This document shows positions 8,854 to 45,360 of a stretch of 64,000 nucleotides of DNA, in pieces (positions within the stretch are counted from its first letter, which is position 1; each line of letters opens with the position of its first letter). A program made the position numbers and the translations under genes. The stretch comes from Candidatus Nanoarchaeia archaeon (lineage in GTDB: Archaea; Nanobdellota; Nanobdellia; JAQUSD01): assembly GCA_028715295.1 (NCBI GenBank), contig JAQUSD010000001.1, forward strand, positions 8,404-72,403, read 5' to 3'. The notes below the pieces were generated by a model. The model saw only the letters and a list, made by a program, of their open reading frames with translations. It had not been told where the DNA came from and did no database searches.

Positions 8854-9297
8854 ATGCAGAAAATTAAGTTTTATATTATGAAATGTTTTGTTGATTCGAA
8901 CGTTTTCATTTCCCTTATACAGGATGAATTCGGAAAAGGATTAGAGTTTATGTCATACAGAACTCAGGAATATTTCAATAGGGTTATGAGATGCTTTCAT
9001 ACAATATTCATTTCTGAAACAATAATAGATGAAGTATGTAAGATTACAAATATCACATTATCTGGATTTATGGACTATATAAATATGTTCCGTGATAAAA
9101 TCATTATTCTTCAAAATAAAAAAGATGAATTAATGGAAGCTGAGGCTGTAAATAAAAAGTATAAAATTGGCAATGACGATGCACTTTATTATGTAACTGC
9201 AAGAAATAATAATTGTGACTGTATTGTTACATGGAATAAAAAGCATTTCCTATTTGCAGAAGATGAACTAAGAATTGTTAATCCAAGCGAGTTATAA
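8854..9297 (+). CDS. PIN-domain protein (VapC-like nuclease)
   Basis: Conserved acidic residues in PIN spacing (FVDSNVFIS..., ETIIDEV, GNDDALYYVTA, CDCIVTWNKK). Confidence 0.6.
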   Translation: MQKIKFYIMKCFVDSNVFISLIQDEFGKGLEFMSYRTQEYFNRVMRCFHTIFISETIIDEVCKITNITLSGFMDYINMFRDKIIILQNKKDELMEAEAVNKKYKIGNDDALYYVTARNNNCDCIVTWNKKHFLFAEDELRIVNPSEL

Positions 9298-9612
9298 TTT
9301 CTTTCCACCCTCTCTTTCCATTATTCTTTTTTTCAATTTTTGGTATGCCTCTTCTTTTATTTTTTCTGGAACAAATGGGCTTTTTATCTTGGCGCCTCTT
9401 GATTTGCTGAGTTCTCTCAATTTTTCAACATGATTAAAGAACATTTCTTTTCTTATTTCAATAATCAGTTTCCTTACAGCATCCCTTACAAATTCAGCTT
9501 TTGAGGAATACAATCCGCTTTCTATGTATTTTTCTATTTCATCAACCATTTCTCCATTGAACTGTATCGGAACTATTTTTTCATTAGGCATATAAACTTT
9601 ATATAAAGTCAA
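9292..9612 (-). CDS. ribbon-helix-helix (CopG/Arc/MetJ family) DNA-binding protein with lysine-rich C-terminal tail
   Basis: Beta-strand plus two helices (VPIQFNGEMVDEIEKYIESGLYSSKAEFVRDAVRKLI). It is convergent with the PIN gene and the 3' ends overlap by 6 nt. Confidence 0.55.
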   Translation of the reverse strand: MTLYKVYMPNEKIVPIQFNGEMVDEIEKYIESGLYSSKAEFVRDAVRKLIIEIRKEMFFNHVEKLRELSKSRGAKIKSPFVPEKIKEEAYQKLKKRIMEREGGKKL

Positions 9613-12006: not shown

Positions 12007-13722
12007 ATGAATGCACTTGCTCAGCCTGATTTTTCATCAGGAACCAATGACAGAAAAGCTGAAATGACAGAGGAACTGCTTAGTCTTTCACTTTCAGTTA
12101 TTGAATCTTTTTCAAAAAACAACATAATAAACAAAAATATGTCCGGCTTCAGGAACACTTCCATACTTCTTGATTATTTAAATTCGCTTTCAGCAAAGGA
12201 TAGGGTGTTATGGAATGTGTACACAATAGCAACATCACTTAATGCTTTTGCTTCAATTAAGAAAGGGGAAACCTTAGGTGATTCTGACTTGGCTTTTGAA
12301 AACCTTGTTTTTGTACTTAACAATGCAGGCGTTCTTGAATCAGAAGAGTGGGTTAACAGCGTTATGTTTTACAATGGTGAAAAAATTGGGATTGAAAAAC
12401 TGAAAACAGGAAAAAATCTATCTGACGCGCTTGTTTCGCTTCTTGAAGATGATTTAAGCACCGAGTTAATAGAAAATTCAGAGTACGACGAAAATGAAAA
12501 TAAGTTTCTTCTTAGCACGGCTTTTTTTGATAAAAAAACAAAAGACGACTACAGAAGCAAAGCAGTTGAACTTCTCAAAAGAGGTATTGATAATTTTACA
12601 GCGGATTCTATTTCAAAAACCCTTAATACAACAGCATCCAAAAGCTACTCAATAATTAAATTTCTCAAAGGGCTTGATGCTGTTGAAGAATCAGGGAAAT
12701 ATAATGGTTCAACAGTTTATTCTCTTAAAAAAATAAGCGGTTTAGAATCAAAGTTATTTTTTGGGAAGCAGGGATTTGAACCTGCTGAGGATATTGATTT
12801 TGAGCTTGATCCACTATGCACCTACAGAAAAAACGCATACGAAATCGCTGACAAAGTTGAAGTAGGCGAAACAATAGCACCAAAAGACTTTGGCTCAGAC
12901 TACACTGCTTTTTCATTTCTTACAAAAATAGGTGTTCTTGAAAAAACAGGGAGGGGAAAATATAGTGTAATATCCAATCTTAAGACAGATGATGACTTAA
13001 AATATAAAATAAAATACTGTTCAAAAGAAAATGAAGAAATTTCAAAAATACAGGATTATGAAGCTGTAAACTTAATTCTTAAATATGCTGATTATACAAA
13101 AGAGGATGAGATAAATGACTCATTGGTTGAAAAGTTAGGACTTTCTCTTTCAAAAAATAAAATAAAAAAGGCGCTTGTGCTTATTGAAAAATACGGAGAT
13201 TCTTATCTTAAACCAAATTATAATGATTTTAAGAAAACAAAAGAAAATGAAATTAATGATGTTTTCATGTATGAACTTGAAAGCTGTTCTAAAAAGGGAG
13301 GCGTTCCAAAGCAGGAATTTTACAGGAAGCTTGCTTATTATGTAAAAGAAAAAATTGACGAACGATTAAACAACCTTGAAGAAAAAGGGTATATTAAAAA
13401 AATAGGTAAAAAAGAAAACCTTGTTTCAGCTAAAAAACATAAATATGATTTCCCCCAGGAAAGGCTGAATAAAAACAGCGTTCTTGTAAAAAAACTTCTT
13501 GATGAAACAAGACAGACTTATTTTTTTAATGCCGAAATTTCAGAAACTTCAAAAAAAGAACTTAAAAGTTATGCTGAAAAGACAGGATGTTCTAAGGAAA
13601 TAATTGATGAGTTTAGCAGTGATTACTTTGAGAAAAACTATCCTAATTCAGATTATCTTTATAAAGCCCTTAAAAAACTAAAGCATGACATGAGCGAGCT
13701 TTATACAATGATGTCTATTTAA
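12007..13722 (+). CDS. hypothetical 571-aa protein with several winged-helix-like repeats
   Basis: No catalytic motif. It has recurrent ~70-aa modules ending in wH-like segments (VYSLKKISGLESK, TAFSFLTKIGVLEKTGRGKYSV, KLAYYVKEKIDERLNNLEEKGYIKKIG). Its stop codon overlaps the convergent NTPase stop at TTTAAA. Confidence 0.4.
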   Translation: MNALAQPDFSSGTNDRKAEMTEELLSLSLSVIESFSKNNIINKNMSGFRNTSILLDYLNSLSAKDRVLWNVYTIATSLNAFASIKKGETLGDSDLAFENLVFVLNNAGVLESEEWVNSVMFYNGEKIGIEKLKTGKNLSDALVSLLEDDLSTELIENSEYDENENKFLLSTAFFDKKTKDDYRSKAVELLKRGIDNFTADSISKTLNTTASKSYSIIKFLKGLDAVEESGKYNGSTVYSLKKISGLESKLFFGKQGFEPAEDIDFELDPLCTYRKNAYEIADKVEVGETIAPKDFGSDYTAFSFLTKIGVLEKTGRGKYSVISNLKTDDDLKYKIKYCSKENEEISKIQDYEAVNLILKYADYTKEDEINDSLVEKLGLSLSKNKIKKALVLIEKYGDSYLKPNYNDFKKTKENEINDVFMYELESCSKKGGVPKQEFYRKLAYYVKEKIDERLNNLEEKGYIKKIGKKENLVSAKKHKYDFPQERLNKNSVLVKKLLDETRQTYFFNAEISETSKKELKSYAEKTGCSKEIIDEFSSDYFEKNYPNSDYLYKALKKLKHDMSELYTMMSI

Positions 13723-16469
13723 ACCACATCGGGGTTTATCATTTCAGTTATTATCTGCCTTACAGCATCAGTATAATCAAGCCTTTCATTATTTTCATCT
13801 TTCTTTTCAATTGCAACTATACTTGATTTCCTGTAAAGTTTATTTCCTATTACATCCCTCATGTCGGCACCTATTTCTGCAAAGTTGTAAATAACTTTGA
13901 AAAAAGAGTATGCCTTAATAGCCTCATCAAATGAATTAAGTGTTGAAATTCCTGATTTCCAGAAAGGATTATTTGGTTTTGACTTAAACGCAACATGGGT
14001 TTTCAAATAAGTAAACCCATTTTTTCCGTAATCTGCTTTTGAAGCAAGATCCATAATGTCTTTAAGATTCTCACATATTGGAAGTGTTTTTGTTTCTTCA
14101 TCTTCTGTTTTTTCCTCGATTGAATTTAAAAAATAATTGCTTTCAGATTTGTAGTTTATAATCGGTGAAACAATTGACTCCAATTTTAAAGAATTTCCTT
14201 CTCCAAGATTTCCCAATGTCATAAATTCCATCTTATTCTTCAGTATGTTAATATATTTGTTTATTATATTGTGGTTTCCTGAATCTTCTGCAAGGTGCTT
14301 GAATCTTTCATATATCCTGTCTTTCTTGTTTATTACAATTTTTTCAAGCCGGTCATAAACCTTTTTTTTATCTTTTGATTTTGATTTTTTAGCTATCTCC
14401 TTAACAAGAAACCAAAAACTGTCTCCTGACTCAGCAGTTTTATCATCAGACTGTTCAAAAATTCTGTTAAAAAATGTATTAAGAACATCTATGCATACTC
14501 TTGAATTAAGGTAAGAATCAGCAATTCCTTCTTTAGATTCTATTAATTTTTTAACAATTTCCTGAGACATTCCTTTTTCAAGAAGTTTAGGAGCAAGCTT
14601 TTCCTTTATATTTTTTTTGAATTCATCGCTTATTGTATCTGCCACTCCTTTGTTTACTTCGTAAATCGCCTCTATGTCAACATCTTCTGAATCCTTACCA
14701 AGCACAGCCATTTGTTCATAAACATAACCCACGCTGTTTTTGAAAGCATTGTTCATAAATCCTGAAAGCTCAAAATCAAGACTTTTTTTAATTTCATCTG
14801 CAATTATAAAATAATTGGTTCTTGAATTTTTTAAGTTATCAAGAATTTTTTCAATTTGTGAATCAATATTGCATACTTCATTATAAGAAGCTTTATTTTT
14901 ATAAGAAGTCTTTATAAAAACACCAGGCATCCCAAGACTGTTTCCATCAACAAACCAGTCAATATTAAGATTTTCAAGCTTCTTGCCTATTGCTTTTGAA
15001 AGAAGTTTTGAGGAGTATTCCTTTCTTTCTTTTTGTGTCATTTTCTTATATATTGGCTTGTCAAGTATAATGTCTGCAAGTTCTTTTTCATCTTCTTCTT
15101 CAGCTATTTTTGGGAAATCCTCTTCTCTCACTGTTCCACCTATTTCAGTGAACCATACCTTCCTGTTGTCAGGAGTTGTAAATCCATTTGGTGTTATTGC
15201 AGTTGCTTTTCTTTCCTTAAGGTCAACATACTCCTCCCCGAAGAGATTAAGGGCTTTTTTTGCATAAATATCTCTAAGATACTCTTTCTTAACTTTTTCA
15301 GAAACCGGAATATCAAGCACAAAATCAACACCTTTTTCAGGGGATATTACATCAGGCATAAGTTTTTTGCAAAGCTTCAAGTAAGGGGCAATTAACTTTA
15401 TGTGTTCACCAAGAGCTTCTGTTACATTGATAATATCACTTTCAGCCACTTCATTCAGAGAATCACTTAGTTCATACTTCCTGCCACCCATCCATGGAAG
15501 AATAACATAGAATTTTCCTTCTGAAAGGTTCTTCTTTGAAGTTATATACTTGACCATAAAACCTGGAAGAGTTTCAACAGCAAGCCTTGCAAGAGCTTCT
15601 GAGTAATAATCAAATTCTTTTTTGCTTAAGACAATTCTGCTTGCAAATAAATAATCAGAGATTTTCTGTATATCCTGATGGAAGAAATCGCTCTTTGCAA
15701 GTGTAGAGATTACGTCTGAAACTTCTCTTCTGTAATTTTTATCATTCATATTTGCAATCTGGCCACAGAGCTTCCATGTTGGAAGAAACTCAGAATCATC
15801 AGGAGAAAGACTTTGGACAATTTTATTTATTCTCTCTTTCCTTTCCATTAAATAAAGACTTAATTTATCCATGTTAACCATACCTTCAAGTTTTGAACCT
15901 ATCTTAGAGATTTTTTCTTCAGTGATATTATTGTACTTCCCCTCCTTGTTTTCAAGTATTTCGTTCAGTTTTCTAATTTCATCAAGACTTCCTTTTTTAA
16001 AAACATCAATAAGATTCCTGCTTATTTCAGTGCTTACAGCGTTTTTAAGAAAAGGTTCAGAGGTAGTTCTGTTGGTCATATACACGTTTAAAAAATCGTC
16101 TGTAAATTCATTGCCTTTGAACGTCATTAAAGCATCTTTAAGTAGTTTTTTTAAATTGGTTATTTGTGGATTCTGAAATCCTTCATTAAGTAATTTTTCA
16201 ATGAACTTTAATGATTCTTTATCTGATGTTTCAGACATTCTCCAGAACTGCTTTGCAAAATCATCTGCGGACATATCATTAATTTTATCCAAAAGTTCTT
16301 TTTTACCACTCCCGAATTTAACGTAATAGTCAATAAGGCTGTTCTCATCGCTTACTATCTTTGAGATATTTTTAATCCCAAACGTGTTGATAAAATCAAA
16401 AACACTTAAAAAAGTAGACTTACCTGAAGAAGGCTGTCCTCCAATAATATGATTACTTTCCCTTACCAT
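13719..16469 (-). CDS. large (916 aa) P-loop NTPase of unknown family
   Basis: N-terminal Walker A (IIGGQPSSGKSTFL) resembles the dynamin/septin-type G1 motif. I found no downstream DxxG or N/TKxD G-motifs. The rest is lysine-rich with no recognisable domain. It lies 33 nt downstream of the SPFH gene on the same strand. Confidence 0.45.
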   Translation of the reverse strand: MVRESNHIIGGQPSSGKSTFLSVFDFINTFGIKNISKIVSDENSLIDYYVKFGSGKKELLDKINDMSADDFAKQFWRMSETSDKESLKFIEKLLNEGFQNPQITNLKKLLKDALMTFKGNEFTDDFLNVYMTNRTTSEPFLKNAVSTEISRNLIDVFKKGSLDEIRKLNEILENKEGKYNNITEEKISKIGSKLEGMVNMDKLSLYLMERKERINKIVQSLSPDDSEFLPTWKLCGQIANMNDKNYRREVSDVISTLAKSDFFHQDIQKISDYLFASRIVLSKKEFDYYSEALARLAVETLPGFMVKYITSKKNLSEGKFYVILPWMGGRKYELSDSLNEVAESDIINVTEALGEHIKLIAPYLKLCKKLMPDVISPEKGVDFVLDIPVSEKVKKEYLRDIYAKKALNLFGEEYVDLKERKATAITPNGFTTPDNRKVWFTEIGGTVREEDFPKIAEEEDEKELADIILDKPIYKKMTQKERKEYSSKLLSKAIGKKLENLNIDWFVDGNSLGMPGVFIKTSYKNKASYNEVCNIDSQIEKILDNLKNSRTNYFIIADEIKKSLDFELSGFMNNAFKNSVGYVYEQMAVLGKDSEDVDIEAIYEVNKGVADTISDEFKKNIKEKLAPKLLEKGMSQEIVKKLIESKEGIADSYLNSRVCIDVLNTFFNRIFEQSDDKTAESGDSFWFLVKEIAKKSKSKDKKKVYDRLEKIVINKKDRIYERFKHLAEDSGNHNIINKYINILKNKMEFMTLGNLGEGNSLKLESIVSPIINYKSESNYFLNSIEEKTEDEETKTLPICENLKDIMDLASKADYGKNGFTYLKTHVAFKSKPNNPFWKSGISTLNSFDEAIKAYSFFKVIYNFAEIGADMRDVIGNKLYRKSSIVAIEKKDENNERLDYTDAVRQIITEMINPDVV

Positions 16470-16502: not shown

Positions 16503-17420
16503 TCATTTGCCTGTGGCAATATTGTTTTTAAAAGCCTCTACCACTTCGCTTAAATCAATATTCTTCCCAAGTGATGAAGATACGCTCTTTGTAATATCTG
16601 ATATGCTTTCAAAGAACTTAGCAGGGAATATAATCTTTGTGGATTTTCCCCTGCCTAGCTCCTCAAGAGCTTTTATGTATATAAACATTAATGCCCTGTC
16701 ATCAAGGGATTTTCCTGCTTCCCCATAAGCTTCTATTGCTATTCTCTTTGCCTCTGCTTTGAAAACCTGTGCCTGCATCATTTCTTTTTCTATAGTTTTC
16801 TTCTCAAGAGCCTCTGAAATCTCATCCGGAGGATATATTCCCTCTATTTGGACCATTGGGACATAAACCCCCCATTTCCATGCATGATGCCTTATTTTAT
16901 CAGCAAGGATATCATTAAGTTCATCAAGTTTCGAGAATAAGTCCCTCATTTTAAGAGAACCAATAACATTTCTTGTTTCGCTTACAATAAGGTTTTTGAT
17001 GCCTCTGGAATAATCTTTTATCTTAAGAACTGCTTTTCTTGGGTTGTCAATTCTGTAATATATGAACCCGTTAAGTTTTATTCTTAAATCATCTTTTGTA
17101 AATGCGCTTGGAACAAATAAGTCCATCATATTTGTTCTTACATCAACCCGGGTATACTCTTTTTCAAAAAAAGGGATTACAACTGTCCAGCCAGGCCCTG
17201 TAATTCTATTAAACTTCCCAAGCCTGAAAATAATGCCTCTTTCATATTCATCATATTTTTTAACGAAAAACCTAAAAAAACCAGCAATACCTATAAAAAT
17301 AAGCACTGCAACAACAATCCACTTGAAGATATCTGAAACATAGAAAAGGTATATGAAAATCAATATTCCTGCTATCCCGACTGCTGTTTCAACAAAAGCC
17401 ATTGTATAATTATACTGCAT
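16503..17420 (-). CDS. SPFH/band-7 (stomatin/prohibitin-like) membrane protein
   Basis: N-terminal TM helices followed by the SPFH core (ERGIIFRLGKFNRITGPGWTVVIPFFEKEYTRVDVRT...TKDDLRIKLNGFIYYRI...EAKRIAIEA). Confidence 0.8.
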   Translation of the reverse strand: MQYNYTMAFVETAVGIAGILIFIYLFYVSDIFKWIVVAVLIFIGIAGFFRFFVKKYDEYERGIIFRLGKFNRITGPGWTVVIPFFEKEYTRVDVRTNMMDLFVPSAFTKDDLRIKLNGFIYYRIDNPRKAVLKIKDYSRGIKNLIVSETRNVIGSLKMRDLFSKLDELNDILADKIRHHAWKWGVYVPMVQIEGIYPPDEISEALEKKTIEKEMMQAQVFKAEAKRIAIEAYGEAGKSLDDRALMFIYIKALEELGRGKSTKIIFPAKFFESISDITKSVSSSLGKNIDLSEVVEAFKNNIATGK

Positions 17421-17492
17421 TTGTATTTTATAACTTTTCCATTATCCTGGTTTTCGAAATCTTTAAAAAGTAATTCATCATTTCTAAAGATA

Positions 17493-17684
17493 ATGGGACG
17501 AATAAGAACATCATTTATTAAAAAAGTAGGAAAGCAGATATACACAAAAAATAAGCCTGAAATAACTAAAAACTTTGAACAAAATAAAGTTACTGTTTCC
17601 AAAATAGCAGACATACCTTCAAAACAGCTTAGAAACAGACTTGCTGGATATGTCACTATGCTTGCTAAAAAGGAAAAGAGGTAA
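17493..17684 (+). CDS. rps17e: ribosomal protein S17e
   Basis: MGRIRTSFIKKVGKQIY... matches the eS17 N-terminal signature (MGRVRTKTVKK). The start is set at the internal Met of ORF 17421-17684. Confidence 0.75.
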   Translation: MGRIRTSFIKKVGKQIYTKNKPEITKNFEQNKVTVSKIADIPSKQLRNRLAGYVTMLAKKEKR

Positions 17685-17694
17685 ATTTCCCGCA

Positions 17695-17967
17695 ATGGAA
17701 AATATTAAAGATAACAGTGTTTTCATCAGTGGAAAGCCTTTTATGAAATATGTAACGGCAGGAGTTCTTAAATTGAATAAGGGAGATATTATAATCAAAG
17801 CCAGAGGAAAATGGATTACAAGGGCTGTTGATGTTGCTGAAGTAATAAGAAACAGTTTTGTAAAAGAAGCAAAGATATCTGGGATAAAAATAGGCTCACA
17901 GGAAGTTTCAGATGAAAAAAGAAAAACAAGAATCTCAACAATTGAACTTACTATGGCAAAAGAGTGA
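17695..17967 (+). CDS. alba: Alba (Sso10b-like) DNA/RNA-binding chromatin protein
   Basis: NSVFISGKPFMKYVTAGVLKLNKGDIIIKARGKWITRAVDVAEVIRNSF...RISTIEL matches the Alba fold signature. The start is set at the internal Met of ORF 17641-17967. Confidence 0.8.
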   Translation: MENIKDNSVFISGKPFMKYVTAGVLKLNKGDIIIKARGKWITRAVDVAEVIRNSFVKEAKISGIKIGSQEVSDEKRKTRISTIELTMAKE

Positions 17968-17998
17968 TTTAAATAGTTCTTTTTTATAATAAATAAAT

Positions 17999-18736
17999 AT
18001 GCTTACTGACTGCCATGCACATCTTGATTCAAAAGAATTTGACAAAGACATAGATGAAGTAATCAAAAGAAGCAATTGTGTAATCATAAACAATGGACTT
18101 AATGCAGAAAGCAACAGAAAAACTCTGCAACTTGCTGAAAAATATGAAAATGTTCTTCCTAGCCTTGGGTTTTATCCATGGGATGCTGTCAGGGATGGAA
18201 TTAAAAAAACTGGAAAGGAAATTGAATTTATCTCAAGACAGAAGATTACTGCTATTGGAGAAATTGGTTTGGACTTTAACATAGAATGTACTAAACAAGA
18301 CATAGAACTCCAGAATTTAGTTTTTAAAAAATTCCTTAAACTTGCTGAAAATATGAATGTTCCTGCAATAATACACACAAGAAAAGCTGAGAAAGAGGTT
18401 CTTGAGGTTCTAAAGAATCACAAAGTTAAGGCAGTTCTGCACATGTATTCGGGAAGCCTTGGTCTCGTAAATGATTTCTTAAAACAAGGATGTTATTTTT
18501 CAATACCTCCACTTGTATACAGGACGAAAAGTATACAGAAACTCGTTGAAATGATTCCTGTTAACAGACTTCTCACTGAAACAGACGCCCCTTATTTAAG
18601 TCATGAAAAAGGAATAAGAAACGAACCTGCATTTGTCAGATATGCTGTCAGCAAAATAGCTGAGCTGAAACATATCAGTTATAAAGAATGTGAAAAAGAA
18701 ATTTATTCCAATTTTAAAAAAGTGTTCGGGATTTAA
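17999..18736 (+). CDS. tatD: TatD-family metal-dependent deoxyribonuclease
   Basis: MLTDCHAHLD start, EIGLDF, HTR, HMYSG and ETDAPY motifs of the TatD/TIM-barrel hydrolase family. Confidence 0.85.
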   Translation: MLTDCHAHLDSKEFDKDIDEVIKRSNCVIINNGLNAESNRKTLQLAEKYENVLPSLGFYPWDAVRDGIKKTGKEIEFISRQKITAIGEIGLDFNIECTKQDIELQNLVFKKFLKLAENMNVPAIIHTRKAEKEVLEVLKNHKVKAVLHMYSGSLGLVNDFLKQGCYFSIPPLVYRTKSIQKLVEMIPVNRLLTETDAPYLSHEKGIRNEPAFVRYAVSKIAELKHISYKECEKEIYSNFKKVFGI

Positions 18737-19212
18737 AAGCGTTCTTTTCTTTCGAACTTTGCAATATTAACTGTTTCCAGTTCTTTTGGACATAAATACA
18801 ATATTTCCTTAATAAGAGCGTCATCGCTGTTTCTTAGGTAATAGTCTGCAATAACAGGATGCTCCCCTTTGCAGAGTTTACATTTCTTTTTTAATCCGGG
18901 GTTTTCAGAAAGAACTGCATCGTCCTCTCTTATTTCCTGCACAAACCAGTAAGGTCCGTTATAGGATTCAAAGAATTCACAGATGTATTCGACACTTTTT
19001 CCACTTAAAGTTCCAGGATAAACATGGAATTTCTTTCCCCTGTTTTTGTAATCTTCTATTTTTTCAAATCCTGCAAGAATTTTGTTGATTTCTTCGAGTT
19101 CTTCAAGTCCTGATTTCTGCGCGTTTAAAAGAATTTCAAGAGTTTTTATTGTCATCTGTTTAATAGCAGTTTTGCTTTTTAATCTGTTTTTATCAAAACC
19201 AAGTTCAGACAT
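18733..19212 (-). CDS. hypothetical protein with C-terminal CxxC...CP pattern
   Basis: 159 aa with CKLCKGEHP ... YLCP, possibly Zn-binding. No family assigned. Confidence 0.35.
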   Translation of the reverse strand: MSELGFDKNRLKSKTAIKQMTIKTLEILLNAQKSGLEELEEINKILAGFEKIEDYKNRGKKFHVYPGTLSGKSVEYICEFFESYNGPYWFVQEIREDDAVLSENPGLKKKCKLCKGEHPVIADYYLRNSDDALIKEILYLCPKELETVNIAKFERKERF

Positions 19213-37148: not shown

Positions 37149-38516
37149 TTAACCAATTTTTATGTGCAACTCTTTAAGCTGTTTTGAATCAACTGATGAA
37201 GGAGCACCCATCATTAAATCTTTTGCAGCTTTATTCTTAGGAAATGCAATAACATCTCTTATGCTTTCAGTTCCTGACATGATTGCTGAAATTCTGTCAA
37301 GTCCTATTGCAAACCCACCATGAGGAGGTGCGAATTTTAATGCCTCAAGAAGAAATCCAAACCTTTCCTTTGCTTTTTTATCACTAATTTTAATTATCTT
37401 GAATATTTTAGCCTGAAGTTCAGGTTCTGAAATCCTAATTGAACCGCTTCCAAGTTCAATACCGTTTAAAACCAAGTCATAGCACTTTGCCTTTACTTTT
37501 TCAGGATGTGTGTCAAGCATAGCAATATCTTCTTCCTGTGGCATTGTAAAAGGATGATGTGCAGGAGAAAGCTGTTTCTCTTCGGCATTGTATTCAAACA
37601 ATGGAAAGTCTGTAACCCAGCAGAATGCAAATTCTTTTGGATTATTTTTGTCTTTTCTCAAGTCAGGCTTATCTGATTTATATTTTTTCATTGCTTCATC
37701 ATAAGTCATTCTTGGAAATGGAATTTTAAGCTTTAAATTAAGAACTCCTTCAAAAAGCTCTTTCATATAACCTTCCATTACGGAATATACATCTTCTTCC
37801 TCTACAAAGCTCATTTCTAAATCCACCTGGGTGAATTCAGGCTGTCTGTCTTTTCTTAAATCTTCATCCCTGAAACATCTTGCTATCTGGAAGTATTTGT
37901 CAAATCCCGCTATCATTAAGCTCTGTTTTAATAATTGAGGGCTTTGAGGAAGTGCATAGAATTCTCCTGGATTTACTCTTGAAGGGACTACATAATCTCT
38001 TGCTCCTTCAGGAGTTGTTTTGATTAAACAAGGAGTTTCTATGTAAAGAAAACCCTGCTTGTCAAAATAATCCATTGTTGACTTTGTTATTTTATGCCTT
38101 AATATTATATTTTTTTGGAGATTGTCCTGTCTTAAATCCAGATATCTATACTGAAGCTTTAAGTCCTCATTTACAACTTCTCCTTGGTTGATTTCAAAAG
38201 GGAGTTTTGGAGGGTTGTTAAGTATCTGTATTTTATCAGCTTTTACTTCAATTTCTCCTGTTGCTAAATCCTTGTTTTCCTTTCCTTTAAGACGGGGTTT
38301 TACTTCTCCTTCAATAAGTATTACACTTTCATTTTTTATCTTATCAATATCGGGGAGATTATTCATCATTACAATCTGTGTTTTTCCGTATCTGTCTCTT
38401 AAATCTGCGAAAAGTATTTTTCCGTGTGCTCTGACTGAGTCAACCCAGCCAGTAAGTTTAACCTTTTTTCCAGAGTGTTTTTTAGTTAATTCCCCGCAAG
38501 TGTGTGTTCTTAGCAT
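37149..38516 (-). CDS. aspS: aspartyl-tRNA synthetase, archaeal type
   Basis: N-terminal OB fold (MLRTHTCGELT...KLTGWV...GKILFADLRDRYG). Class II motifs (FRDEDLR, GSGSIRI, GGFAIGLDR). Confidence 0.85.
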   Translation of the reverse strand: MLRTHTCGELTKKHSGKKVKLTGWVDSVRAHGKILFADLRDRYGKTQIVMMNNLPDIDKIKNESVILIEGEVKPRLKGKENKDLATGEIEVKADKIQILNNPPKLPFEINQGEVVNEDLKLQYRYLDLRQDNLQKNIILRHKITKSTMDYFDKQGFLYIETPCLIKTTPEGARDYVVPSRVNPGEFYALPQSPQLLKQSLMIAGFDKYFQIARCFRDEDLRKDRQPEFTQVDLEMSFVEEEDVYSVMEGYMKELFEGVLNLKLKIPFPRMTYDEAMKKYKSDKPDLRKDKNNPKEFAFCWVTDFPLFEYNAEEKQLSPAHHPFTMPQEEDIAMLDTHPEKVKAKCYDLVLNGIELGSGSIRISEPELQAKIFKIIKISDKKAKERFGFLLEALKFAPPHGGFAIGLDRISAIMSGTESIRDVIAFPKNKAAKDLMMGAPSSVDSKQLKELHIKIG

Positions 38517-38656
38517 AAGGATAAAATAAATGCTGATAAATTATAAAACTAACGCTTAACTGAATTTAGGGATAACCTAACCAGTTTAAAGTTGTGGGGT
38601 TATGATTAGTGAGAGTAATGTTGATGATGAGTTATATGGGGGGGATTAAGGACCTA

Positions 38657-39184
38657 TTAAGTAAAATTAGAACATTCCAAATACCATTTATTCCAATCTG
38701 CAATAGGATTATCAGTCCATGCATTAGCGAGTAGTGTTTGCAACAGCATAGAAGTAAACAGTATTAGTAAAAGTATGGAAAATGATAACATGAATTGTGA
38801 TTTCTTTGACTTAAATTTTTTATTAAATTTAAATGAGGAAAAAAGTAGAATAGATGAAAGTATGATTGATGGGATTAACAAATATGACTCATAGATGACG
38901 CCAGCATAATTTATTTTCGCTTTTTCTTCTTTAGATAGAGAATTATAATTTTCACAATCCAATTTTGAAATGGGTTTTGCTTCTGCTAAACCCCACTCAT
39001 CTATTCTACTAAAATCAGGAATATAATTTATTTTTGTTAAGCTAAGAGTTATATTAAATTTACTTGCTTCAATAATATGTCCTTCTTCATGTAAATATGT
39101 TTTTAGTAATAAAAAAGAGTAAGTTATAATTAACATTAAAAAGAGTAATTGTAGTGTTATTTTTATTGTTTCTTTTATTTTCAT
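38657..39184 (-). CDS. small membrane protein with HExxH (HEEGH) metalloprotease-like motif
   Basis: HEEGH directly follows TM1 (LLLKTYLHEEGHIIEA), with two further C-terminal TM helices. The start/stop overlaps the type IIG gene as ATGA, which suggests co-transcription. Confidence 0.4.
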   Translation of the reverse strand: MKIKETIKITLQLLFLMLIITYSFLLLKTYLHEEGHIIEASKFNITLSLTKINYIPDFSRIDEWGLAEAKPISKLDCENYNSLSKEEKAKINYAGVIYESYLLIPSIILSSILLFSSFKFNKKFKSKKSQFMLSFSILLLILFTSMLLQTLLANAWTDNPIADWNKWYLECSNFT

Positions 39185-42003
39185 TTCAAACTTTCTTCAA
39201 TAATCTTCTTTTCTTCCTCAGTTATCCCATATAACTTATAAACTAACTCATCAATTTTTTTATCAGTTTCTTTAATTTCATCTTCTATTTTCGCTCTCTC
39301 ATCCGTCTTTTTATCTCCCATCTCATTTAGTTTTTTATTTAGAGAAAGCATTTTGTCAACAAGTTCAATAATTGGTTTTTGCTGATTTTCAGGAGCCATT
39401 CTAATTGGTAAGTCTTTAAGATATGTTGTACTATACCTATAAACATGTCCTTTCTTTTTACCTATTCTTGACATATAATAAGTTAGAAGTGTAGAATTAA
39501 GTATTCCTAACAAATATTTATATTTTATATCAACATTTTCTTTTATCACAATTATAAAAACCTCAGCACCCCCGTTGTAATAACCGACATCATCCAAGGC
39601 AAATGAATTTTTAGGAGACAAATAAGGAACAACTAGTTTTATTTTTGCATTGTCAAAAAGTTGTTTATTTCTTAGGGTGCTTAAACTATACCATTCGCAT
39701 TGCTTATTTTTGTAAGCGTATCTTTCAGTTAGTTTATCTTTATGATCTAATAAATATTTTAATGTATTAGGAAACTTGTTAACGTCATCTTTTTTTGTTA
39801 AATAAATCATATAAAGATCATCATAATCAATAAAATATCTTTTAATATTCCCATTTTTTATATCTTTTACAAGTAAACTTTTTTCAATATTATACTTGTT
39901 AACTGTATCTTTTTTAATTTCAAACACAGCATTTAAACCAGTATCATATCCTTTACCAATGTAACTAATATCTTCCAATAACTTATTACCCATTTTAATT
40001 TTATTAATTAATGAATTTATTTTACTTGATTCAAGAAGCCAAGGTTCCTTTGTTAACTTATTTTGTGCAGTACTAAGCATATTCTGATTAGATAAATCAT
40101 TTTGTATATTAGCTATCTTCTTAAAATTAATTTGGTTTATTTGTCTCTCTTGTTTAATATTATTTTTTTCTAAAATAACAATGCATGTATGTATATTTGC
40201 ATCATTAAAAACTAAGTTATCCCCAAAATCAAGAATTTGCTTAATTTTCGCTTTATCTAAAATATATTCTCTTAATTTATCCGCCCATTTACTTTCTAAC
40301 CAATATCTAGAGGTTATAAACCCAAGATAACCTTTCTCTTTTAAAACATTTAAGCCAAGAAGTATAAAATAATAAAGTATATCTGATTGTCCTCTGAAAA
40401 CATTTTTCCATTTGTCATTTGTAGCAAAATAATTTTGAATGCCTTTGCCCGTTGTTTGCATATTAAAGTAGGGAGGATTACCAATAACAACATCAAAGCC
40501 CCCTTCTTTCATTACTTCACTGAATTCCTTATTCCAGTCAAAAGCCTTATCTCCAGCAACTTTAGAATCATCAATAAGGGAATTTCCATTCTTAATGTTC
40601 TGCTGTAATAAAGGTAATCTGTGTCCTCTCTCAGCAATCTTGAGTAAAAGATTAAGCTGTGCAATTTCAACAGCCTGTTTGTCCAAATCAACTCCAAAAA
40701 TATTATTCTTAAGTATGTTTGTTTTCCTAGTAAATGTAGTTCCTGAACCAGTGTCTAATTTAGTCTGAGAATAATACTTATCTTTTTCTTTCCAGTATTC
40801 ATTAAGAGTATCAAATGCTTTAATCAAAAATGAACCTGAACCGCAGGCAGGATCTAAAATCCTGATTTTCTCAGGGTTTACTTTCTTGTCTTTAAGAAGT
40901 TCTCCGATAGTATTTTTAACAATATAATCAACAATGTAAGTAGGAGTATAATAAATTCCATGTTCTTTTCTTTTTTTATGCCCTTCCTCAACCTTAGCTC
41001 TTTTACTGGTCTTCTTTAGAATATGCCCTAAATACTGTTCATAAATATTACCCAATACGTCAGCCTCAATAGCTGAAAAATCATAAAATATAGAATTGTC
41101 ATTAGTATGATATAATCCCGTTATGACATCAAAAAGAACATCATTTCCGATTTTTAATTTATCACACATATGTTCTGCAAAAATCTTACTGTTATACCTC
41201 TCATCAAAATAAGCAAATATTTCTTTTAATCTATCAACAACCATGCCTTTTCCACTGCTACGCCATTCTCTTAAACAACTAAGCAGTTTTATTTCTTCAA
41301 GCTCCCTGTCTTCACAGCTTCTTATAAATATTAATCTGTCAAGAATTCTTTGGACTGATTCATCAAGTTCATCTTCACTGACATTACCATTCATTTTAGT
41401 AATGCTTTTAGACAATAATTCCCTGAAATTAGTAAAGTCATTAAGAAGTTGCTGGTCAATAGACATCTTTTTTACTTTCTTGCCCCACCTCTCAGCTTCT
41501 TTACTTAGTAAGTTCTCCTTAAAACTTTCCTTGGATAATAACCACAATTCTTCAAACCTGTCAAGAAGTTCATAATAATTAAGAGTCTTAAGATGACTCT
41601 GCATTGGGTTAGCAGTTTTCCACTCTGCATTGAATATTTTTATTGTCTTAAAATCAGTCAAAACTGCCCAAGTACAGCTCTTATGCCATGCATAACTTAT
41701 TGCCTGTTTAATGTAATCCGGTTTATCTACACCTTCTTTAATTGATTTAGCTTCTAAGAAAAACTTAGGAACTCCGTTTAGTCTGAAACTGTAATCGACA
41801 AAACCTTTTGATATTTTTTCTTCAGCAGAAACTTCAGAAGAATCCTCAACATTCCAGCCCAAAGCTCTGAATAAAGGGAGAATGAAGTCTTTCTTAGTCA
41901 TTTCTTCATTGTAATTTTTAATCTTCTCTATGTTCCTGTTATACTTTTCTATTATTACTTTAATTTCCTGTTTTGCCTGTTCTTTTAATTTAATCTCAGT
42001 CAT
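39181..42003 (-). CDS. MmeI/Eco57I-like single-chain type IIG restriction-modification enzyme (PD-ExK nuclease + gamma-class N6-adenine MTase + TRD)
   Basis: N-terminal HsdR_N-like nuclease motif (GFVDYSF...FFLEAKSIK = D...ExK). MTase motifs X (GIYYTP), I (ILDPACGSGSFL) and IV (VVIGNPPYF). About 450 aa of C-terminal target-recognition region. 940 aa, as in MmeI-family enzymes. Confidence 0.75.
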   Translation of the reverse strand: MTEIKLKEQAKQEIKVIIEKYNRNIEKIKNYNEEMTKKDFILPLFRALGWNVEDSSEVSAEEKISKGFVDYSFRLNGVPKFFLEAKSIKEGVDKPDYIKQAISYAWHKSCTWAVLTDFKTIKIFNAEWKTANPMQSHLKTLNYYELLDRFEELWLLSKESFKENLLSKEAERWGKKVKKMSIDQQLLNDFTNFRELLSKSITKMNGNVSEDELDESVQRILDRLIFIRSCEDRELEEIKLLSCLREWRSSGKGMVVDRLKEIFAYFDERYNSKIFAEHMCDKLKIGNDVLFDVITGLYHTNDNSIFYDFSAIEADVLGNIYEQYLGHILKKTSKRAKVEEGHKKRKEHGIYYTPTYIVDYIVKNTIGELLKDKKVNPEKIRILDPACGSGSFLIKAFDTLNEYWKEKDKYYSQTKLDTGSGTTFTRKTNILKNNIFGVDLDKQAVEIAQLNLLLKIAERGHRLPLLQQNIKNGNSLIDDSKVAGDKAFDWNKEFSEVMKEGGFDVVIGNPPYFNMQTTGKGIQNYFATNDKWKNVFRGQSDILYYFILLGLNVLKEKGYLGFITSRYWLESKWADKLREYILDKAKIKQILDFGDNLVFNDANIHTCIVILEKNNIKQERQINQINFKKIANIQNDLSNQNMLSTAQNKLTKEPWLLESSKINSLINKIKMGNKLLEDISYIGKGYDTGLNAVFEIKKDTVNKYNIEKSLLVKDIKNGNIKRYFIDYDDLYMIYLTKKDDVNKFPNTLKYLLDHKDKLTERYAYKNKQCEWYSLSTLRNKQLFDNAKIKLVVPYLSPKNSFALDDVGYYNGGAEVFIIVIKENVDIKYKYLLGILNSTLLTYYMSRIGKKKGHVYRYSTTYLKDLPIRMAPENQQKPIIELVDKMLSLNKKLNEMGDKKTDERAKIEDEIKETDKKIDELVYKLYGITEEEKKIIEESLK

Positions 42004-42079
42004 TTTATGTATCTTTATCTAAACCCTCAGTTTTTAAAATATTATCCTTAAATGAAATTTTGTCCGTAAATAAAGAATA

Positions 42080-42421
42080 TTATACAGCACTGTAAGGTAA
42101 TTGGGTAGATAAGGATATCTCACTTATACACTTGTTTTCAGGCACCCTTATAGCAACTTCTTTTAGTACTAAAATAACTAATACAAAAAGAACATTCTGT
42201 ATTACTTTCTTAGTTATTTTAGCTTTTTTAATTGCTTTAAACAAACTTTTAGAGTAATTATAATTTTTAGAAACATTAAGAAGTTCAATACCTGCTATTT
42301 TATCCTCACTGTCAAAATCTATTACAGCATTACCATATCTTAATGAACTTTTAACCTCTTTTTTTTCATCAACAACATATAAAGAATCTGCAACAGGATT
42401 ATAATCAAACTTAAACTTCAT
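42080..42421 (-). CDS. DUF2283-family protein with C-terminal TM extension
   Basis: MKFKFDYNPVADSLYVV...IAGIELLNVSK matches the DUF2283 consensus (MKITYD.EADALYI...GIEILNAS). No DUF4258 partner is adjacent. Confidence 0.55.
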   Translation of the reverse strand: MKFKFDYNPVADSLYVVDEKKEVKSSLRYGNAVIDFDSEDKIAGIELLNVSKNYNYSKSLFKAIKKAKITKKVIQNVLFVLVILVLKEVAIRVPENKCISEISLSTQLPYSAV

Positions 42422-42582
42422 TTTCTTATCACCTTACCATGTCTTAACTTATACTTATTAATATGTCGTTTATTAACTATTTTTAAATGCTTTTTAATCA
42501 TAAGATAAATAGTGTATGCAATATATAGTGTATTGCATAAGCAAAAAGGTTTAAATATACTAATACTTATTAAAATTTAGAC

Positions 42583-42876
42583 ATGGCACAGGATTCTCAA
42601 TTAGTAATCGACTCTACTAAAGATTTTGTTAATCTTATTGATGAAAGAACGAAAAAAGCAATAGAATTATCTCAAGGCATGGTAAAGGAAGCAGTTGAAA
42701 CAGAGATGGATTTATTTAAATTTGAAATGTTATACGCAGTAACCGTACCAAAAACCCAAAGAGAAAAAACCGTTAAACAGATTAGAACTTTAAGAGATAC
42801 AGAATGGAAAAAAGCAATAAAAGAAGCTGATGGAGATGAACAAAAAGCTTTTGCTATTTATTGTAACGATTTTTAG
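42583..42876 (+). CDS. hypothetical protein
   Basis: 97-aa helical ORF. No motif. Confidence 0.3.
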   Translation: MAQDSQLVIDSTKDFVNLIDERTKKAIELSQGMVKEAVETEMDLFKFEMLYAVTVPKTQREKTVKQIRTLRDTEWKKAIKEADGDEQKAFAIYCNDF

Positions 42877-43402
42877 ATAGTGCATTTCTTATTTTATCAT
42901 CCAATTCTCGGGTATAAGTAGGGAAAGCCACAGCATTAAGCCCTATTACTTCACAGGCTTTTCTGAATTCATTGTCTATAGAATAAACCATGTTTATTCC
43001 GTTCTTTTTAAAATCAGCAATGATGAAATCATCCGGTTTATGTAAACCTATGTTTTCTTTTCTGCATTTTTCTCTCAAATCATACAATATTTTAGTATTA
43101 GTAGGGTCAGCATTAATAGTTCCTATTTTTTTCTTATTAATATAGGCAATAACTTCATCTCTTGCTTCTTCTTCAGTGTAATCCTCATATTTCATCAGAT
43201 TTTTCTTTGTTTCTTTCAAGCATGCCTGATGAGTAAAAATCAAATTATCATTATTGAATATCTCAGCTCGTTTTTTATCAAAATCCTCAACATATACAAT
43301 AAGATTATACAAAACACAGCTGTCTAAACCTACCTTCCTTACACCAGTATACGAAACTGTTCTTGATATCACAATTTCATTATTTCCACCTGCTTTTTTC
43401 AT
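42854..43402 (-). CDS. putative PIN-like domain protein
   Basis: VGLDSCVLYNLI first-strand Asp. Later acidic positions (DFIIADF, SIDNEF). TATA-like TTTATAAA ~27 nt upstream. Confidence 0.35.
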   Translation of the reverse strand: MKKAGGNNEIVISRTVSYTGVRKVGLDSCVLYNLIVYVEDFDKKRAEIFNNDNLIFTHQACLKETKKNLMKYEDYTEEEARDEVIAYINKKKIGTINADPTNTKILYDLREKCRKENIGLHKPDDFIIADFKKNGINMVYSIDNEFRKACEVIGLNAVAFPTYTRELDDKIRNALSKNRYNK

Positions 43403-43480
43403 CGTAATTTTGCAGTAATTTTTGATTTATAAATATTGTCCATACTTTATTTGACTGTACCACACGTTATGTTTTCTCTT

Positions 43481-43580
43481 AACATAATTAAACCTATAAG
43501 TCCTGTCACATCTAAAACACTTAATCCTCTTTCTACTACGAGTTTTCTGACAAAAACCACAAAAGTATCACTTAAAAACC
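43481..43580. repeat. direct repeat copy A (3' flank of hicA)
   Basis: acataattaaacctataagtcctgtcacatctaaaacacttaatcctctttct plus ...aaaagtatcacttaaaaacc. About 85% identical to copy B at 44242-44360. Confidence 0.7.
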
Positions 43581-43805
43581 TTCAATAAGTTCCTCTTTAC
43601 TTATCTCAGTTTGTTTTAAAATAGCCATTAATGTTCCCATAGGCATTGTTTTATTCCCATGGACCGCAACAATAGTCAGTAATATTTTTTTATCAATTTT
43701 TTTCTTCAATCTTACATGACTTCCTTTTGTACCAACTACCTCAAAACCCTTAGATTGAAGAAATTTTACCATCTCTTTGCCTTTTACAGCTGGTAATTTA
43801 CTCAT
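43572..43805 (-). CDS. hicA: HicA-family toxin (mRNA interferase)
   Basis: KGSHVRL...TIVAVHGNKTMPMGTLMAILKQTEIS closely matches the HicA signature (GSH...hP.HG.K.l..GTL..ILKQAG). Confidence 0.8.
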   Translation of the reverse strand: MSKLPAVKGKEMVKFLQSKGFEVVGTKGSHVRLKKKIDKKILLTIVAVHGNKTMPMGTLMAILKQTEISKEELIEGF

Positions 43806-44090
43806 CTAGCACCCCTGAGATACAGAAACCACTTTTCCTGAAGTAGGCACTACACCAATAGTTTTAGAAAATGTCATTTCTACAAATGCACCTATTACTT
43901 TAGGAGCATCAGGATCTTCAAAATACAATTCCAATGCTTCATCTACATTTTTTTTAGCTTCTTCAATAGTATCACCAAATGAAGAAACATCCACTAATGG
44001 ACAGGTAGCCACGATACTTTTTTTATTGTCTACTATTTCTTCTGTGATAACAATTGGTAATGGAAATGGTAATTTTTTCATTTTTTTCAC
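43806..44090 (-). CDS. hicB: HicB-like antitoxin (UPF0150/RNase H-like fold)
   Basis: 94 aa, directly abutting hicA upstream on the same strand. VATCPLVDVSSFGDTIEEAKKNVDEALELYFE fits the HicB N-domain. Confidence 0.6.
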   Translation of the reverse strand: MKKMKKLPFPLPIVITEEIVDNKKSIVATCPLVDVSSFGDTIEEAKKNVDEALELYFEDPDAPKVIGAFVEMTFSKTIGVVPTSGKVVSVSQGC

Positions 44091-44241
44091 CTTTTTTTGA
44101 GTTTTAGTTTTTAATTTTTTAACCTTATAAGGTTTTCTAGAGCTTCTGCTACTTTCCTAACAATTTATGCAGAATAATAAACCTCTGTCTCCACAGTAAG
44201 TATGTAAGTATGCATTATTTATATTCATTTCCATTAATCCC

Positions 44242-44360
44242 CACATAATTAAACTGGTAAGTCCTCTCACATCTAAAACACTTAACCCTCTTTTCCTGTT
44301 AATAAAAGGGGCTTCCCTAATTCAGGTGATTTCCAAGCAAAAAGTATCATTTAAAACTCA
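44242..44360. repeat. direct repeat copy B (5' flank of hicB)
   Basis: acataattaaactggtaagtcctctcacatctaaaacacttaaccctcttttcct plus ...aaaagtatcatttaaaactc. Confidence 0.7.
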
Positions 44361-44525
44361 GCCAAAAACCTTTTGGACTATTAACTTTAAATGCTTTTAA
44401 CACCAAAATAAACCTTGTTATATCAGCATACTCATGTATCCAACATATAATTATTTACGCCGAGGGATTAATCCCTATATTTTCATTACTTGTATGAGAA
44501 TATTACGCCGAGGGAGAGATTCGAA

Positions 44526-44609
44526 CTCTCGCCTCCCAGGGGAGACAGACTTTCAAGGCCTGCGCATTAGACCGCTCTGCCACCTCGGCATATCTAAAAA
44601 TAGGTTAAA
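44526..44609 (-). tRNA. tRNA-Ser (anticodon UGA), class II, CCA not encoded
   Basis: The reverse complement folds with acceptor GCCGAGG/CCTCGGC, anticodon stem CAGGC/GTCTG, loop CTTGAAA (anticodon TGA), a long variable arm, and T-arm GAGAG-TTCGAAT-CTCTC. Confidence 0.85.
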
Positions 44610-44638
44610 ATTATGGTTTTTAAATCTTTTTATAAATA

Positions 44639-44968
44639 ATGATTTCAAGTGCAGAAACATTTATATATCAATTGATATATAAAATTCTCATGAATAACCA
44701 GGCGCTTAAAAATCCCTTTGCAAGATCTCCTACATTAGAAACAGTGCTTTTGGTTGAAAAATCAGTTGAGAAATACAGTGGTGAATTCAACAGAACTGAA
44801 TTATGGAAGAAACTGCCTAAAAAAATAATGTGGCAGACCTACCTTGTAATTTTGGATTATCTTAAGGAAATAAACAAAGTAGCTTTTGATAAAAATGGGA
44901 AAATTGCATATATATGGAATCCCGAACTCATGAAGAGATTAAGACAAAGAAAGTCTGTTGGGGTGTAA
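44639..44968 (+). CDS. hypothetical protein
   Basis: 109-aa ORF immediately upstream of the RelE-like gene. No motif. Confidence 0.3.
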   Translation: MISSAETFIYQLIYKILMNNQALKNPFARSPTLETVLLVEKSVEKYSGEFNRTELWKKLPKKIMWQTYLVILDYLKEINKVAFDKNGKIAYIWNPELMKRLRQRKSVGV

Positions 44969-45030
44969 TTATCGGAAATTAAGGACACCTTTGGGAAGCA
45001 AATATAAACAAAAAGTTCTAATCAAACCAT

Positions 45031-45360
45031 ATGATTAAAGCCTCAAAAGTTGTTTTTATATCTGATGAATTGGAAGGTTATTTTAATTCATTAAGTGATG
45101 AAGAACCTCTTAAGAAAGCAATAGTAAAGGCGATAAAAAATCTAAATTATAATGCATTCTCAGGCATCCAAATACCAAAAAAATTAATTCCAAAAGATTA
45201 TGTCCAGAATTACAAAATAAATAATTTATGGAAATTAAATCTAATCAATGGATGGAGACTTTTATACACTGTGACAGCAGACAATAAAGTAGAATTGATT
45301 TCAGCGATACTTGAGTGGTTCAGTCATAAAGAATATGAAAGAAAATTAAAATATAAATAA
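45031..45360 (+). CDS. RelE/ParE-superfamily toxin-like protein
   Basis: C-terminal NNLWKLNLINGWRLLYTVTADNKVELISAILEWFSHKEYER matches the RelE/YoeB-type pattern (LW.l.l...WRliY.v.....v.il.i..H..Y). Confidence 0.45.
   Translation: MIKASKVVFISDELEGYFNSLSDEEPLKKAIVKAIKNLNYNAFSGIQIPKKLIPKDYVQNYKINNLWKLNLINGWRLLYTVTADNKVELISAILEWFSHKEYERKLKYK

Follow-up and report, generated by a model that had tools for sequence, protein, structure and literature searches.

A defence and addiction gene cluster beside tRNA-Ser(UGA) in a Candidatus Nanoarchaeia archaeon, with a PIN nuclease gene and its convergent partner

The locus reported here lies in a 64,000-nucleotide (nt) stretch of contig JAQUSD010000001.1 (the window), which belongs to a metagenome-assembled genome of Candidatus Nanoarchaeia archaeon (DPANN) deposited in GenBank (locus tags PHW96_003xx), and comprises the block of genes between aspS and tRNA-Ser(UGA) together with a small cassette just past the tRNA gene. 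Its closest described counterparts as a whole are tRNA-associated islands, with which it shares the location at a tRNA 3′ end, a deviant composition, the presence of genes for defence and addiction, and a partial duplication of the tRNA terminus. At the level of its modules, the points of reference are type IIG restriction-modification (R-M) enzymes with an Eco57I methylase and a TaqI-type recognition domain, in which a nuclease, a gamma-class N6-adenine methyltransferase, and a recognition domain are likewise joined in one chain; the MmeI family (type IIG/IIL), with which the enzyme found here has in common the single-chain layout of nuclease, methyltransferase, and recognition domain in that order; and the HicAB, VapBC, and YoeB/RelE toxin-antitoxin systems. 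The DUF2283 domain, also encoded in the block, is known from FseA, an activator of the excision of an integrative and conjugative element (ICE), and the authors of that work suggested that DUF2283 proteins are primarily transcriptional regulators (PMC4755241).

The cluster combines one single-protein R-M enzyme with small modules of toxin-antitoxin type, of which there are four or five. We consider it fairly likely that the aspS-tRNA-Ser(UGA) segment (~38.52-44.50 kb) is a mosaic built by the piecemeal accumulation of independent mobile selfish modules, and we count the small cassette just past the tRNA gene with this mosaic accessory region. The cluster is probably horizontally derived. Apart from one pair of genes, it is an ordinary small defence and addiction accessory gene cluster and serves mostly as calibration, being consistent with the published pattern for archaea; it also shows, in a tiny DPANN genome, that a cluster of distinct composition can lie beside a tRNA gene without recognizable mobility genes. 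The exception is a PIN nuclease gene with a convergent partner, which is the sole element with real potential for novelty and a lead worth keeping.

A compositionally deviant cluster at the 3′ end of tRNA-Ser(UGA)

The first-pass annotation of the window had proposed an accessory, foreign-looking defence and addiction cluster abutting the 3′ end of tRNA-Ser, and this proposal is supported both by the deviant composition of the block and by the patchy distribution and mobility of its module families. The 3′ end of tRNA-Ser(UGA) points toward the cluster. Within the window, which is itself AT-rich (GC content, ~33%), the region at 38.5-44.5 kb has the lowest GC content of all 5.5-kb windows (0.290 versus 0.331 +/- 0.014), the largest tetranucleotide distance (0.0227 versus 0.0126 +/- 0.0028), and the lowest GC-corrected tetranucleotide correlation. 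For the seven genes at 38.66-44.09 kb, the mean third-codon-position GC content (GC3) is 0.201, compared with 0.266 for the window (Mann-Whitney p 6e-5); of the 71 sliding 7-gene blocks this one has the lowest value, and 20,000 random sets of 7 genes included none as low. When GC and codon usage were compared with the rest of the window, as the first pass had recommended, the expected deviation was thus seen in GC, GC3, and tetranucleotides but not in synonymous codon choice, a point to which we return below.

In addition, the block holds nearly all toxin-antitoxin and restriction genes of the window. Among 20 small open reading frames (ORFs) outside it, one has a toxin-antitoxin-type match (a PIN gene at 8854-9297), and the PADLOC matches outside it are to DinG, BrxH, DrmD, and HerA. 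As far as these could be placed, the mapping being partial, they correspond to housekeeping-type helicases (XPD and a Helicase_C protein) and to a HerA-like ORF at 11-1435. The remainder of the window is of housekeeping character and includes genes for pyruvate phosphate dikinase (PPDK), XPD helicase, PolX, enolase, and lipoyl synthase, along with further ORFs that the first pass assigned to pyruvate dehydrogenase subunits.

A PIN nuclease gene and its convergent partner

The 182-amino-acid (aa) ORF taken at first for PIN-like has, on its own, no direct match in Pfam, NCBIfam, or PADLOC. A full HMMER search placed it in a small and sporadic family of 74 representative clusters. Pfam PIN (PF01850) is matched by 19 of the 41 aligned family members, the family profile matches the PIN protein PcrIIC1 at 5.9e-6, and the acidic residues D27, E64, and D124 are conserved in the 41 sequences. 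A model of the protein made with AlphaFold2 (AF2) from the 41-sequence alignment has a pLDDT of 93.8 (a single-sequence AlphaFold run gave 35.5), and in a Foldseek search of this model against the PDB, the top 34 matches are all VapC/PIN-domain structures, with a best target-normalized TM-score of 0.77-0.79. Given the agreement of homologues, family profile, predicted fold, and conserved acidic residues, the PIN assignment holds, and transitive homology together with the confident model identifies the product as a predicted VapC-type PIN nuclease.

The PIN gene, on the minus strand, is convergent with a plus-strand ORF of 97 aa, and the 3′ ends of the two genes overlap by 23 nt. Three other loci encode PIN homologues with 34-51% identity, each with a homologous convergent partner of 89-95 aa, and the overlaps there are 20, 17, and 20 nt (pairs at L171:101-911, L172:4001-4820, and L173:3001-3820, respectively). 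These three loci represent unrelated genomic contexts, and the convergent arrangement was found in all four loci inspected, window included, a small sample. The C-terminus of the partner (GDEQKAFAIYC) is conserved, and the 97-aa protein has no relative in Pfam or the PDB. Since the genes are convergent with a 3′ overlap of 17-23 nt, their transcripts would be mutually antisense.

No co-directional VapB-type antitoxin gene was detected upstream of the PIN gene, where there is only one copy of a repeat (copy A, described below) with a start-less zinc-ribbon remnant. This remnant was considered as a possible PIN antitoxin and rejected, because its start codon is missing and because it is absent upstream of the PIN homologues. 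We regard the 97-aa protein as a candidate antitoxin or regulator of the PIN nuclease. The recurrence of the pair marks the two genes as a conserved two-gene module, with an arrangement that is unlike canonical VapBC and unusual for a PIN toxin module. A more far-reaching proposal, which we put forward tentatively and consider possible rather than probable, is that the pair constitutes a previously undescribed toxin-partner module in which an antisense 3′ overlap, and not an operon, couples the expression of toxin and neutralizer. A full-text literature search for such a PIN-partner module found nothing, which is weak negative evidence.

The window contains a second PIN gene (8854-9297, plus strand, 147 aa; GC content, 0.277), which is unrelated to the first and matches Pfam PIN above the cut-off at 7.8e-6. 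Its convergent neighbour (106 aa; 9292-9612, minus strand) was tested as a member of the pair family and is not homologous to the 97-aa partner.

The type IIG enzyme and the smaller modules

Profile searches sustained the first-pass assignments of the R-M enzyme, HicA, and DUF2283, supported that of the PIN nuclease through its family, and gave weak results for HicB and the RelE-like protein. Every feature listed in that annotation was found where it had been placed (Table 1), and GenBank already annotates the methylase, PIN, HicA, and DUF2283 genes. The gene inventory itself was incomplete in two places, as the 97-aa partner of the PIN nuclease and a 92-aa ORF beyond the tRNA gene, both conserved partners of their neighbours, had been overlooked. 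The genes originally listed between aspS and tRNA-Ser are all on the minus strand, and the 97-aa ORF is on the plus strand; two plus-strand ORFs lie on the far (5′) side of tRNA-Ser.

Table 1. Features of the aspS-tRNA-Ser(UGA) region (positions in the window)
Feature	Coordinates	Strand	Basis or remark
aspS	37149-38516	-	Pfam tRNA-synt_2, 5e-119
Left junction, aspS/HExxH gene intergenic	38517-38656		Holds a short motif also found, inverted, at the right edge
HExxH membrane protein, 175 aa	38657-39184	-	HEEGH and three hydrophobic segments
Type IIG R-M enzyme (predicted), 940 aa	39181-42003	-	PADLOC PDLC03604, Pfam
DUF2283 protein, 113 aa	42080-42421	-	Pfam PF10049
PIN partner, 97 aa	42583-42876	+	Conserved in homologous loci
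Divergent PIN (VapC-like) nuclease, 182 aa	42854-43402	-	Homologues, profile, model
Repeat copy A	43482-43590 (51-nt core, 43482-43532)		Alignment
HicA toxin, 77 aa	43572-43805	-	Pfam HicA_toxin PF07927
HicB-like antitoxin, 94 aa, GTG start	43806-44090	-	Weak Pfam and PHROG matches
Repeat copy B	44243-44350 (51-nt core, 44243-44293)		Alignment
Copy of tRNA-Ser 3′ terminus, 13 nt, TTACGCCGAGGGA	44455-44467		Exact match
tRNA-Ser(UGA)	44505-44590	-	ARAGORN; Rfam tRNA, 58.4 bits
Partner of RelE/YoeB-like gene, 92 aa	44690-44968	+	Pair conserved in L007; GenBank start
RelE/YoeB-superfamily-like candidate toxin, 109 aa	45031-45360	+	Sub-threshold profile matches

The largest gene of the block encodes a 940-aa protein that matches PADLOC PDLC03604 at E 2.3e-140 over residues 10-934 (profile positions 6-1003 of 1011) and the Pfam families Eco57I (2.4e-44), N6_Mtase (4.6e-31), TaqI_C (7.9e-13), and HSDR_N (1.4e-9; residues 61-129). 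Its domains follow each other in the order N-terminal PD-(D/E)xK nuclease of the HSDR_N type, helical linker, gamma-class N6-adenine methyltransferase, TaqI_C-type recognition domain, and conserved C-terminal helix. Across 12 aligned homologues, D70, E84, and K86 of the nuclease are invariant, as are methyltransferase motif I (DPACGSGSF, for the binding of S-adenosylmethionine) and motif IV (NPPY, residues 509-512); the same alignment shows a hypervariable recognition domain and a conserved C-terminal helix. With its catalytic motifs intact, the gene looks functional, and the family appears to be diversifying its specificity. The protein is accordingly predicted to be an intact single-chain type IIG R-M enzyme, with activities assigned from its family. 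In such an enzyme, the TaqI-like recognition domain would read an asymmetric DNA site, the gamma-class methyltransferase would mark host adenines using S-adenosylmethionine, and the N-terminal PD-(D/E)xK domain would cut incoming unmodified DNA, which together would supply a compact one-gene defence.

The same protein had initially been described as an MmeI-like nuclease-methyltransferase, which is apt for its general architecture and not for its family membership. The match to Pfam MmeI_Mtase is weak (1.6e-13) and far below that to Eco57I, the N-terminal, helical, recognition, and C-terminal Pfam domains that are specific to MmeI have no match in the protein, and MmeI is absent from the six PDB sequences that match the enzyme at E <= 1e-3. 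Strict membership in the MmeI family was ruled out on these grounds, MmeI_Mtase being the only MmeI domain matched; the enzyme differs from that family in having a nuclease of the HSDR_N type and a recognition domain of the TaqI_C type. Among solved structures, residues 345-904 come closest to the adenine methyltransferases CamA (PDB 7LNI) and M.BseCI (PDB 7QW5).

Relatives of the enzyme are widespread, with at least 7,851 proteins at E <= 1e-20 across archaeal and bacterial phyla. The best non-self match has 62% identity, and homologues at ~50-55% identity are found in Aenigmatarchaeota, Altiarchaeota, Parvarchaeota, Spirochaetota, and Bacteroidia. Full-length relatives (~27% identity) are carried by 39 bacterial plasmids, 21 of which are conjugative. 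The homologous gene is solitary in five other loci, in some of them wedged among housekeeping genes (DPANN genomes), and in one of the five a serine recombinase lies beside it.

The start of the 175-aa ORF overlaps the stop codon of the enzyme gene in the sequence ATGA, and because its ATG thereby overlaps the TGA of the enzyme, co-translation is plausible. The product has an HEEGH motif at residues 32-36, directly after the first of three predicted membrane segments. The motif is of the HExxH form found in zincin-type metalloproteases, but the protein matches no recognizable peptidase family; it is annotated as hypothetical in GenBank and has no match in Pfam, NCBIfam, PADLOC, PHROGs, or the PDB. 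A functional tie between this HExxH protein and the enzyme was not borne out. The gene is absent beside type IIG homologues in the five contexts, a tblastn search against all fetched loci was negative, and a role as a conserved accessory of the enzyme was rejected, since the gene is missing at every enzyme homologue inspected. The link between the two therefore appears to be a local one and no conserved system.

The DUF2283 protein matches PF10049 over the full profile length at E 2.6e-9 (37.5 bits versus a cut-off of 23), in confirmation of the orphan DUF2283 gene reported in the first pass. The domain spans residues 4-51, the tail is hydrophobic, the gene is solitary, and GenBank lists the product as "DUF2283 domain-containing protein." The divergent intergenic region between this gene and the 97-aa ORF contains, at 42510-42539, a direct repeat (TAGTGTATGCAATA and TAGTGTATTGCATA) that includes an inverted repeat and could be an operator.

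HicA matches PF07927 at 9.7e-18 (64.5 bits versus a cut-off of 27) and a PHROG "toxin" profile at 1.5e-12. The HicB-like gene directly adjoins hicA, in the order hicB-hicA, and its product matches Pfam HicB_lk_antitox at 1.5e-3 (19.1 bits, below the cut-off of 27) and a PHROG "HicB-like" profile at 3e-5, with no match in the PDB. In the repeat-flanked hicBA of the earlier description, HicA is thus secure and the flanking repeats are real, and HicB is weakly supported. The repeats are direct and share a 51-nt core with 90% identity (alignment score, 77 versus a shuffle maximum of 38), reaching ~110 nt once an indel is allowed; copy A starts near the hicA stop codon and extends downstream. One of the five core differences is synonymous, and the other four fall in conservative replacements (I/V, D/E, and R/Q). 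Both repeats contain, on the minus strand (43431-43568 and 44243-44350), remnants of a CxxC-x10-CxxC zinc-ribbon peptide (KRIKCFRCDRTYRFNYV and KRVKCFRCERTYQFNYV), with no start codon in either copy and with internal stops in copy B, which also holds a relic with similarity to the hicA 3′ end. The repeats look like decayed duplicates derived from tandem duplication or recombination.

Beyond the tRNA gene, the 109-aa ORF has sub-threshold matches to YoeB_toxin (4e-3; 17.5 bits versus a cut-off of 27), ParE (0.09), and TIGR02116 (0.028), and when a two-sequence profile of it was compared with the PDB, YoeB structures ranked first (E 0.05 and 0.19). The RelE/ParE-like ORF reported past the tRNA is located as described, with superfamily matches that stay below threshold, and we use the RelE/YoeB label as a tentative one. 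The longest ORF of its upstream partner starts at 44639, and GenBank and the homologue alignment both favour a start at 44690, giving 92 aa; this protein has no match to any family, antitoxin families included. The pair is 45-48% identical to an overlapping gene pair (98 aa and 108 aa) in a Woesearchaeota contig (L007), which there has uppP on one side and, immediately downstream on the other, a second aminoacyl-tRNA synthetase gene. The 92-aa and 109-aa genes form a mobile two-gene cassette of toxin-antitoxin type, in which the 92-aa protein is the candidate antitoxin. Lying on the 5′ side of the tRNA gene, this cassette is separate from the block. The Woesearchaeota contig also encodes, within L007:508-5290, two proteins resembling aspartyl-tRNA synthetase (AspRS), of 493 aa and 427 aa, with 53% and 26% identity, respectively, to the AspRS of the window.

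Origin of the cluster and comparison with known systems

Relatives of the locus were sought by scanning GTDB genomes, JGI metagenomes, and a 5.8-billion-protein collection with AspRS. The best non-self matches are 58-65% identical, the nearest being from Woesearchaeota, Pacearchaeota, and Nanoarchaeota, and no genome with an AspRS above 65% identity was found in any of the three collections. The contexts examined (L001-L160, L169, and L170) have no neighbours in common with the window and no tRNA-Ser near aspS. With the nearest AspRS ~62-65% identical, the call of an island is made from composition alone. On the closest long relative contig (L169; AspRS, 62%), a phage-type integrase gene and a reverse transcriptase gene are located a few kilobases downstream of aspS (12707-13936 and 17320-18873), so that the aspS neighbourhood is variable there too, with different cargo. 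The AspRS of the window is itself of the short form (455 aa) and aligns contiguously with DPANN homologues; it aligns to bacterial loci (such as L053 and L079) in two pieces ~390 nt apart, which indicates that it is without the bacterial insertion domain.

Several modules (the type IIG gene, the PIN pair, and the pair with the RelE-like gene) are found separately in unrelated contexts, which argues for piecemeal gain, and the gene remnants in the hicBA repeats, together with the duplicated tRNA 3′ end, argue for past recombination at the locus. We infer the horizontal origin of the modules and any order in which they were acquired. Once in place, the toxin modules would stabilize the region via post-segregational killing or abortive infection. 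The duplicated tRNA end is an exact copy of the 13-nt 3′ terminus of tRNA-Ser that recurs 48 nt downstream of the gene (~3e-4 chance matches expected window-wide); as an att-like scar, it suggests that a site-specific event once took place at the tRNA. A short motif, TTAATCCC (also given as TTAATCCCC), is present in 8 copies in the window versus 3.1 expected, and 5 of these are at the block edges. The copy at the left junction (TTAATCCCCCCCATATAAC; minus strand, core at 38642-38649) has the opposite orientation to those at the right edge, for example the one at 44234-44241 (plus strand), and one copy is a palindrome, AGGGATTAATCCCT (44464-44475), directly after the 13-nt tRNA-end copy. A wider alignment of the edge motif is marginal, as 1 of 590 other window chunks matches equally well and shuffles can exceed the score, and the motifs may be relic terminal repeats, recombination sites, or chance.

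Several observations weigh against a mosaic of separately acquired foreign modules. Synonymous codon usage of the block genes is normal (z -0.9 to +1.5), which suggests either a long residence of these genes or an origin from donors that were similarly AT-rich, and a looser constraint on small accessory genes could explain part of the low GC content. Neither HicB nor the RelE-like toxin nor either partner protein has significant family support. No close relative for a presence/absence comparison at the locus was found in the three collections. Finally, the inverted motif at both edges hints that the block could once have moved as a unit.

A rival possibility is that the block is what decay has left of a single integrative element, whether virus, plasmid, or integrative island, which entered at the 3′ end of tRNA-Ser and later lost its integrase and distal att site. 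The position of the block on the 3′ side of the tRNA, the exact copy of the tRNA terminus 48 nt away, the uniformly low GC3 over all seven genes, the short inverted motif at both edges, and the occurrence of DUF2283 domains in regulators of ICE excision (PMC4755241) would all be in keeping with such an element. However, the tRNA terminus and its copy enclose just 35 nt and not the island, and no tRNA-derived repeat was found near the aspS-side boundary at 38.5 kb, where a second att copy was looked for. No integrase or recombinase domain, or integrase remnant, is present in any ORF at 38.5-45.4 kb according to Pfam, NCBIfam, and PADLOC, and on this point the first pass, which had also seen no integrase, was right. 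The only DNA-level similarity to known phages or plasmids is in 250 nt of methylase sequence, no PIN-family relatives were found in viral contigs, and each module was met separately in unrelated contexts. The single tRNA-integrated island with a lost integrase that had been envisaged at first is therefore not upheld, and we consider one decayed integrative element unlikely, and less likely than piecemeal accumulation.

A native, vertically inherited region, in which genes that are short and under weak constraint, together with AT-rich DNA between genes, lowered the GC content and the adjacency to the tRNA gene is coincidental, would account for a synonymous codon choice that matches the rest of the contig; moreover, aspS gene order is unconserved even in the nearest relatives, so that local order carries little signal. 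This explanation is improbable in our view, given that the 2.8-kb enzyme gene itself is below average in GC content, that GC-corrected tetranucleotide usage is the most deviant in the window, that the families are sporadic and cross domains of life, and that the duplicated gene remnants and tRNA terminus point to recombination events. Most improbable of all would be a chimera of metagenome assembly or binning, in which foreign DNA had been joined into the contig. The source is indeed a metagenome-assembled genome, and the compositional break coincides with the block, but the codon usage is compatible with the host, housekeeping genes lie on both sides within a single 84,225-bp contig, and no junction repeat is long enough for misjoining. 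Piecemeal accumulation of independent modules beside tRNA-Ser thus remains the reading that we favour.

In comparison with known systems, the block differs from tRNA-associated islands in being very small (~6 kb) and without an integrase or a bounding att repeat, and its R-M enzyme, unlike other members of the type IIG family, is followed by the gene of an HExxH membrane protein, putatively in translational coupling. The hicBA cassette shares with HicAB systems a HicA above the Pfam cut-off and the hicB-hicA order, and it is set apart by a short (94 aa), sub-threshold HicB without a recognizable DNA-binding domain and by ~110-nt flanking direct repeats with gene remnants. Similarly, the pair beyond the tRNA resembles YoeB/RelE pairs as a two-gene cassette with the small gene upstream and with best, if weak, matches to YoeB toxins, whereas the 109-aa protein is ~25 residues longer than YoeB and has no significant match, and no antitoxin family is matched by its partner. 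The 182-aa protein shares with VapC of VapBC systems the PIN fold and the acidic residues D27, E64, and D124, and it differs from them in being ~50 residues longer than a typical VapC and in having, in place of a co-directional upstream VapB, a convergent 97-aa partner.

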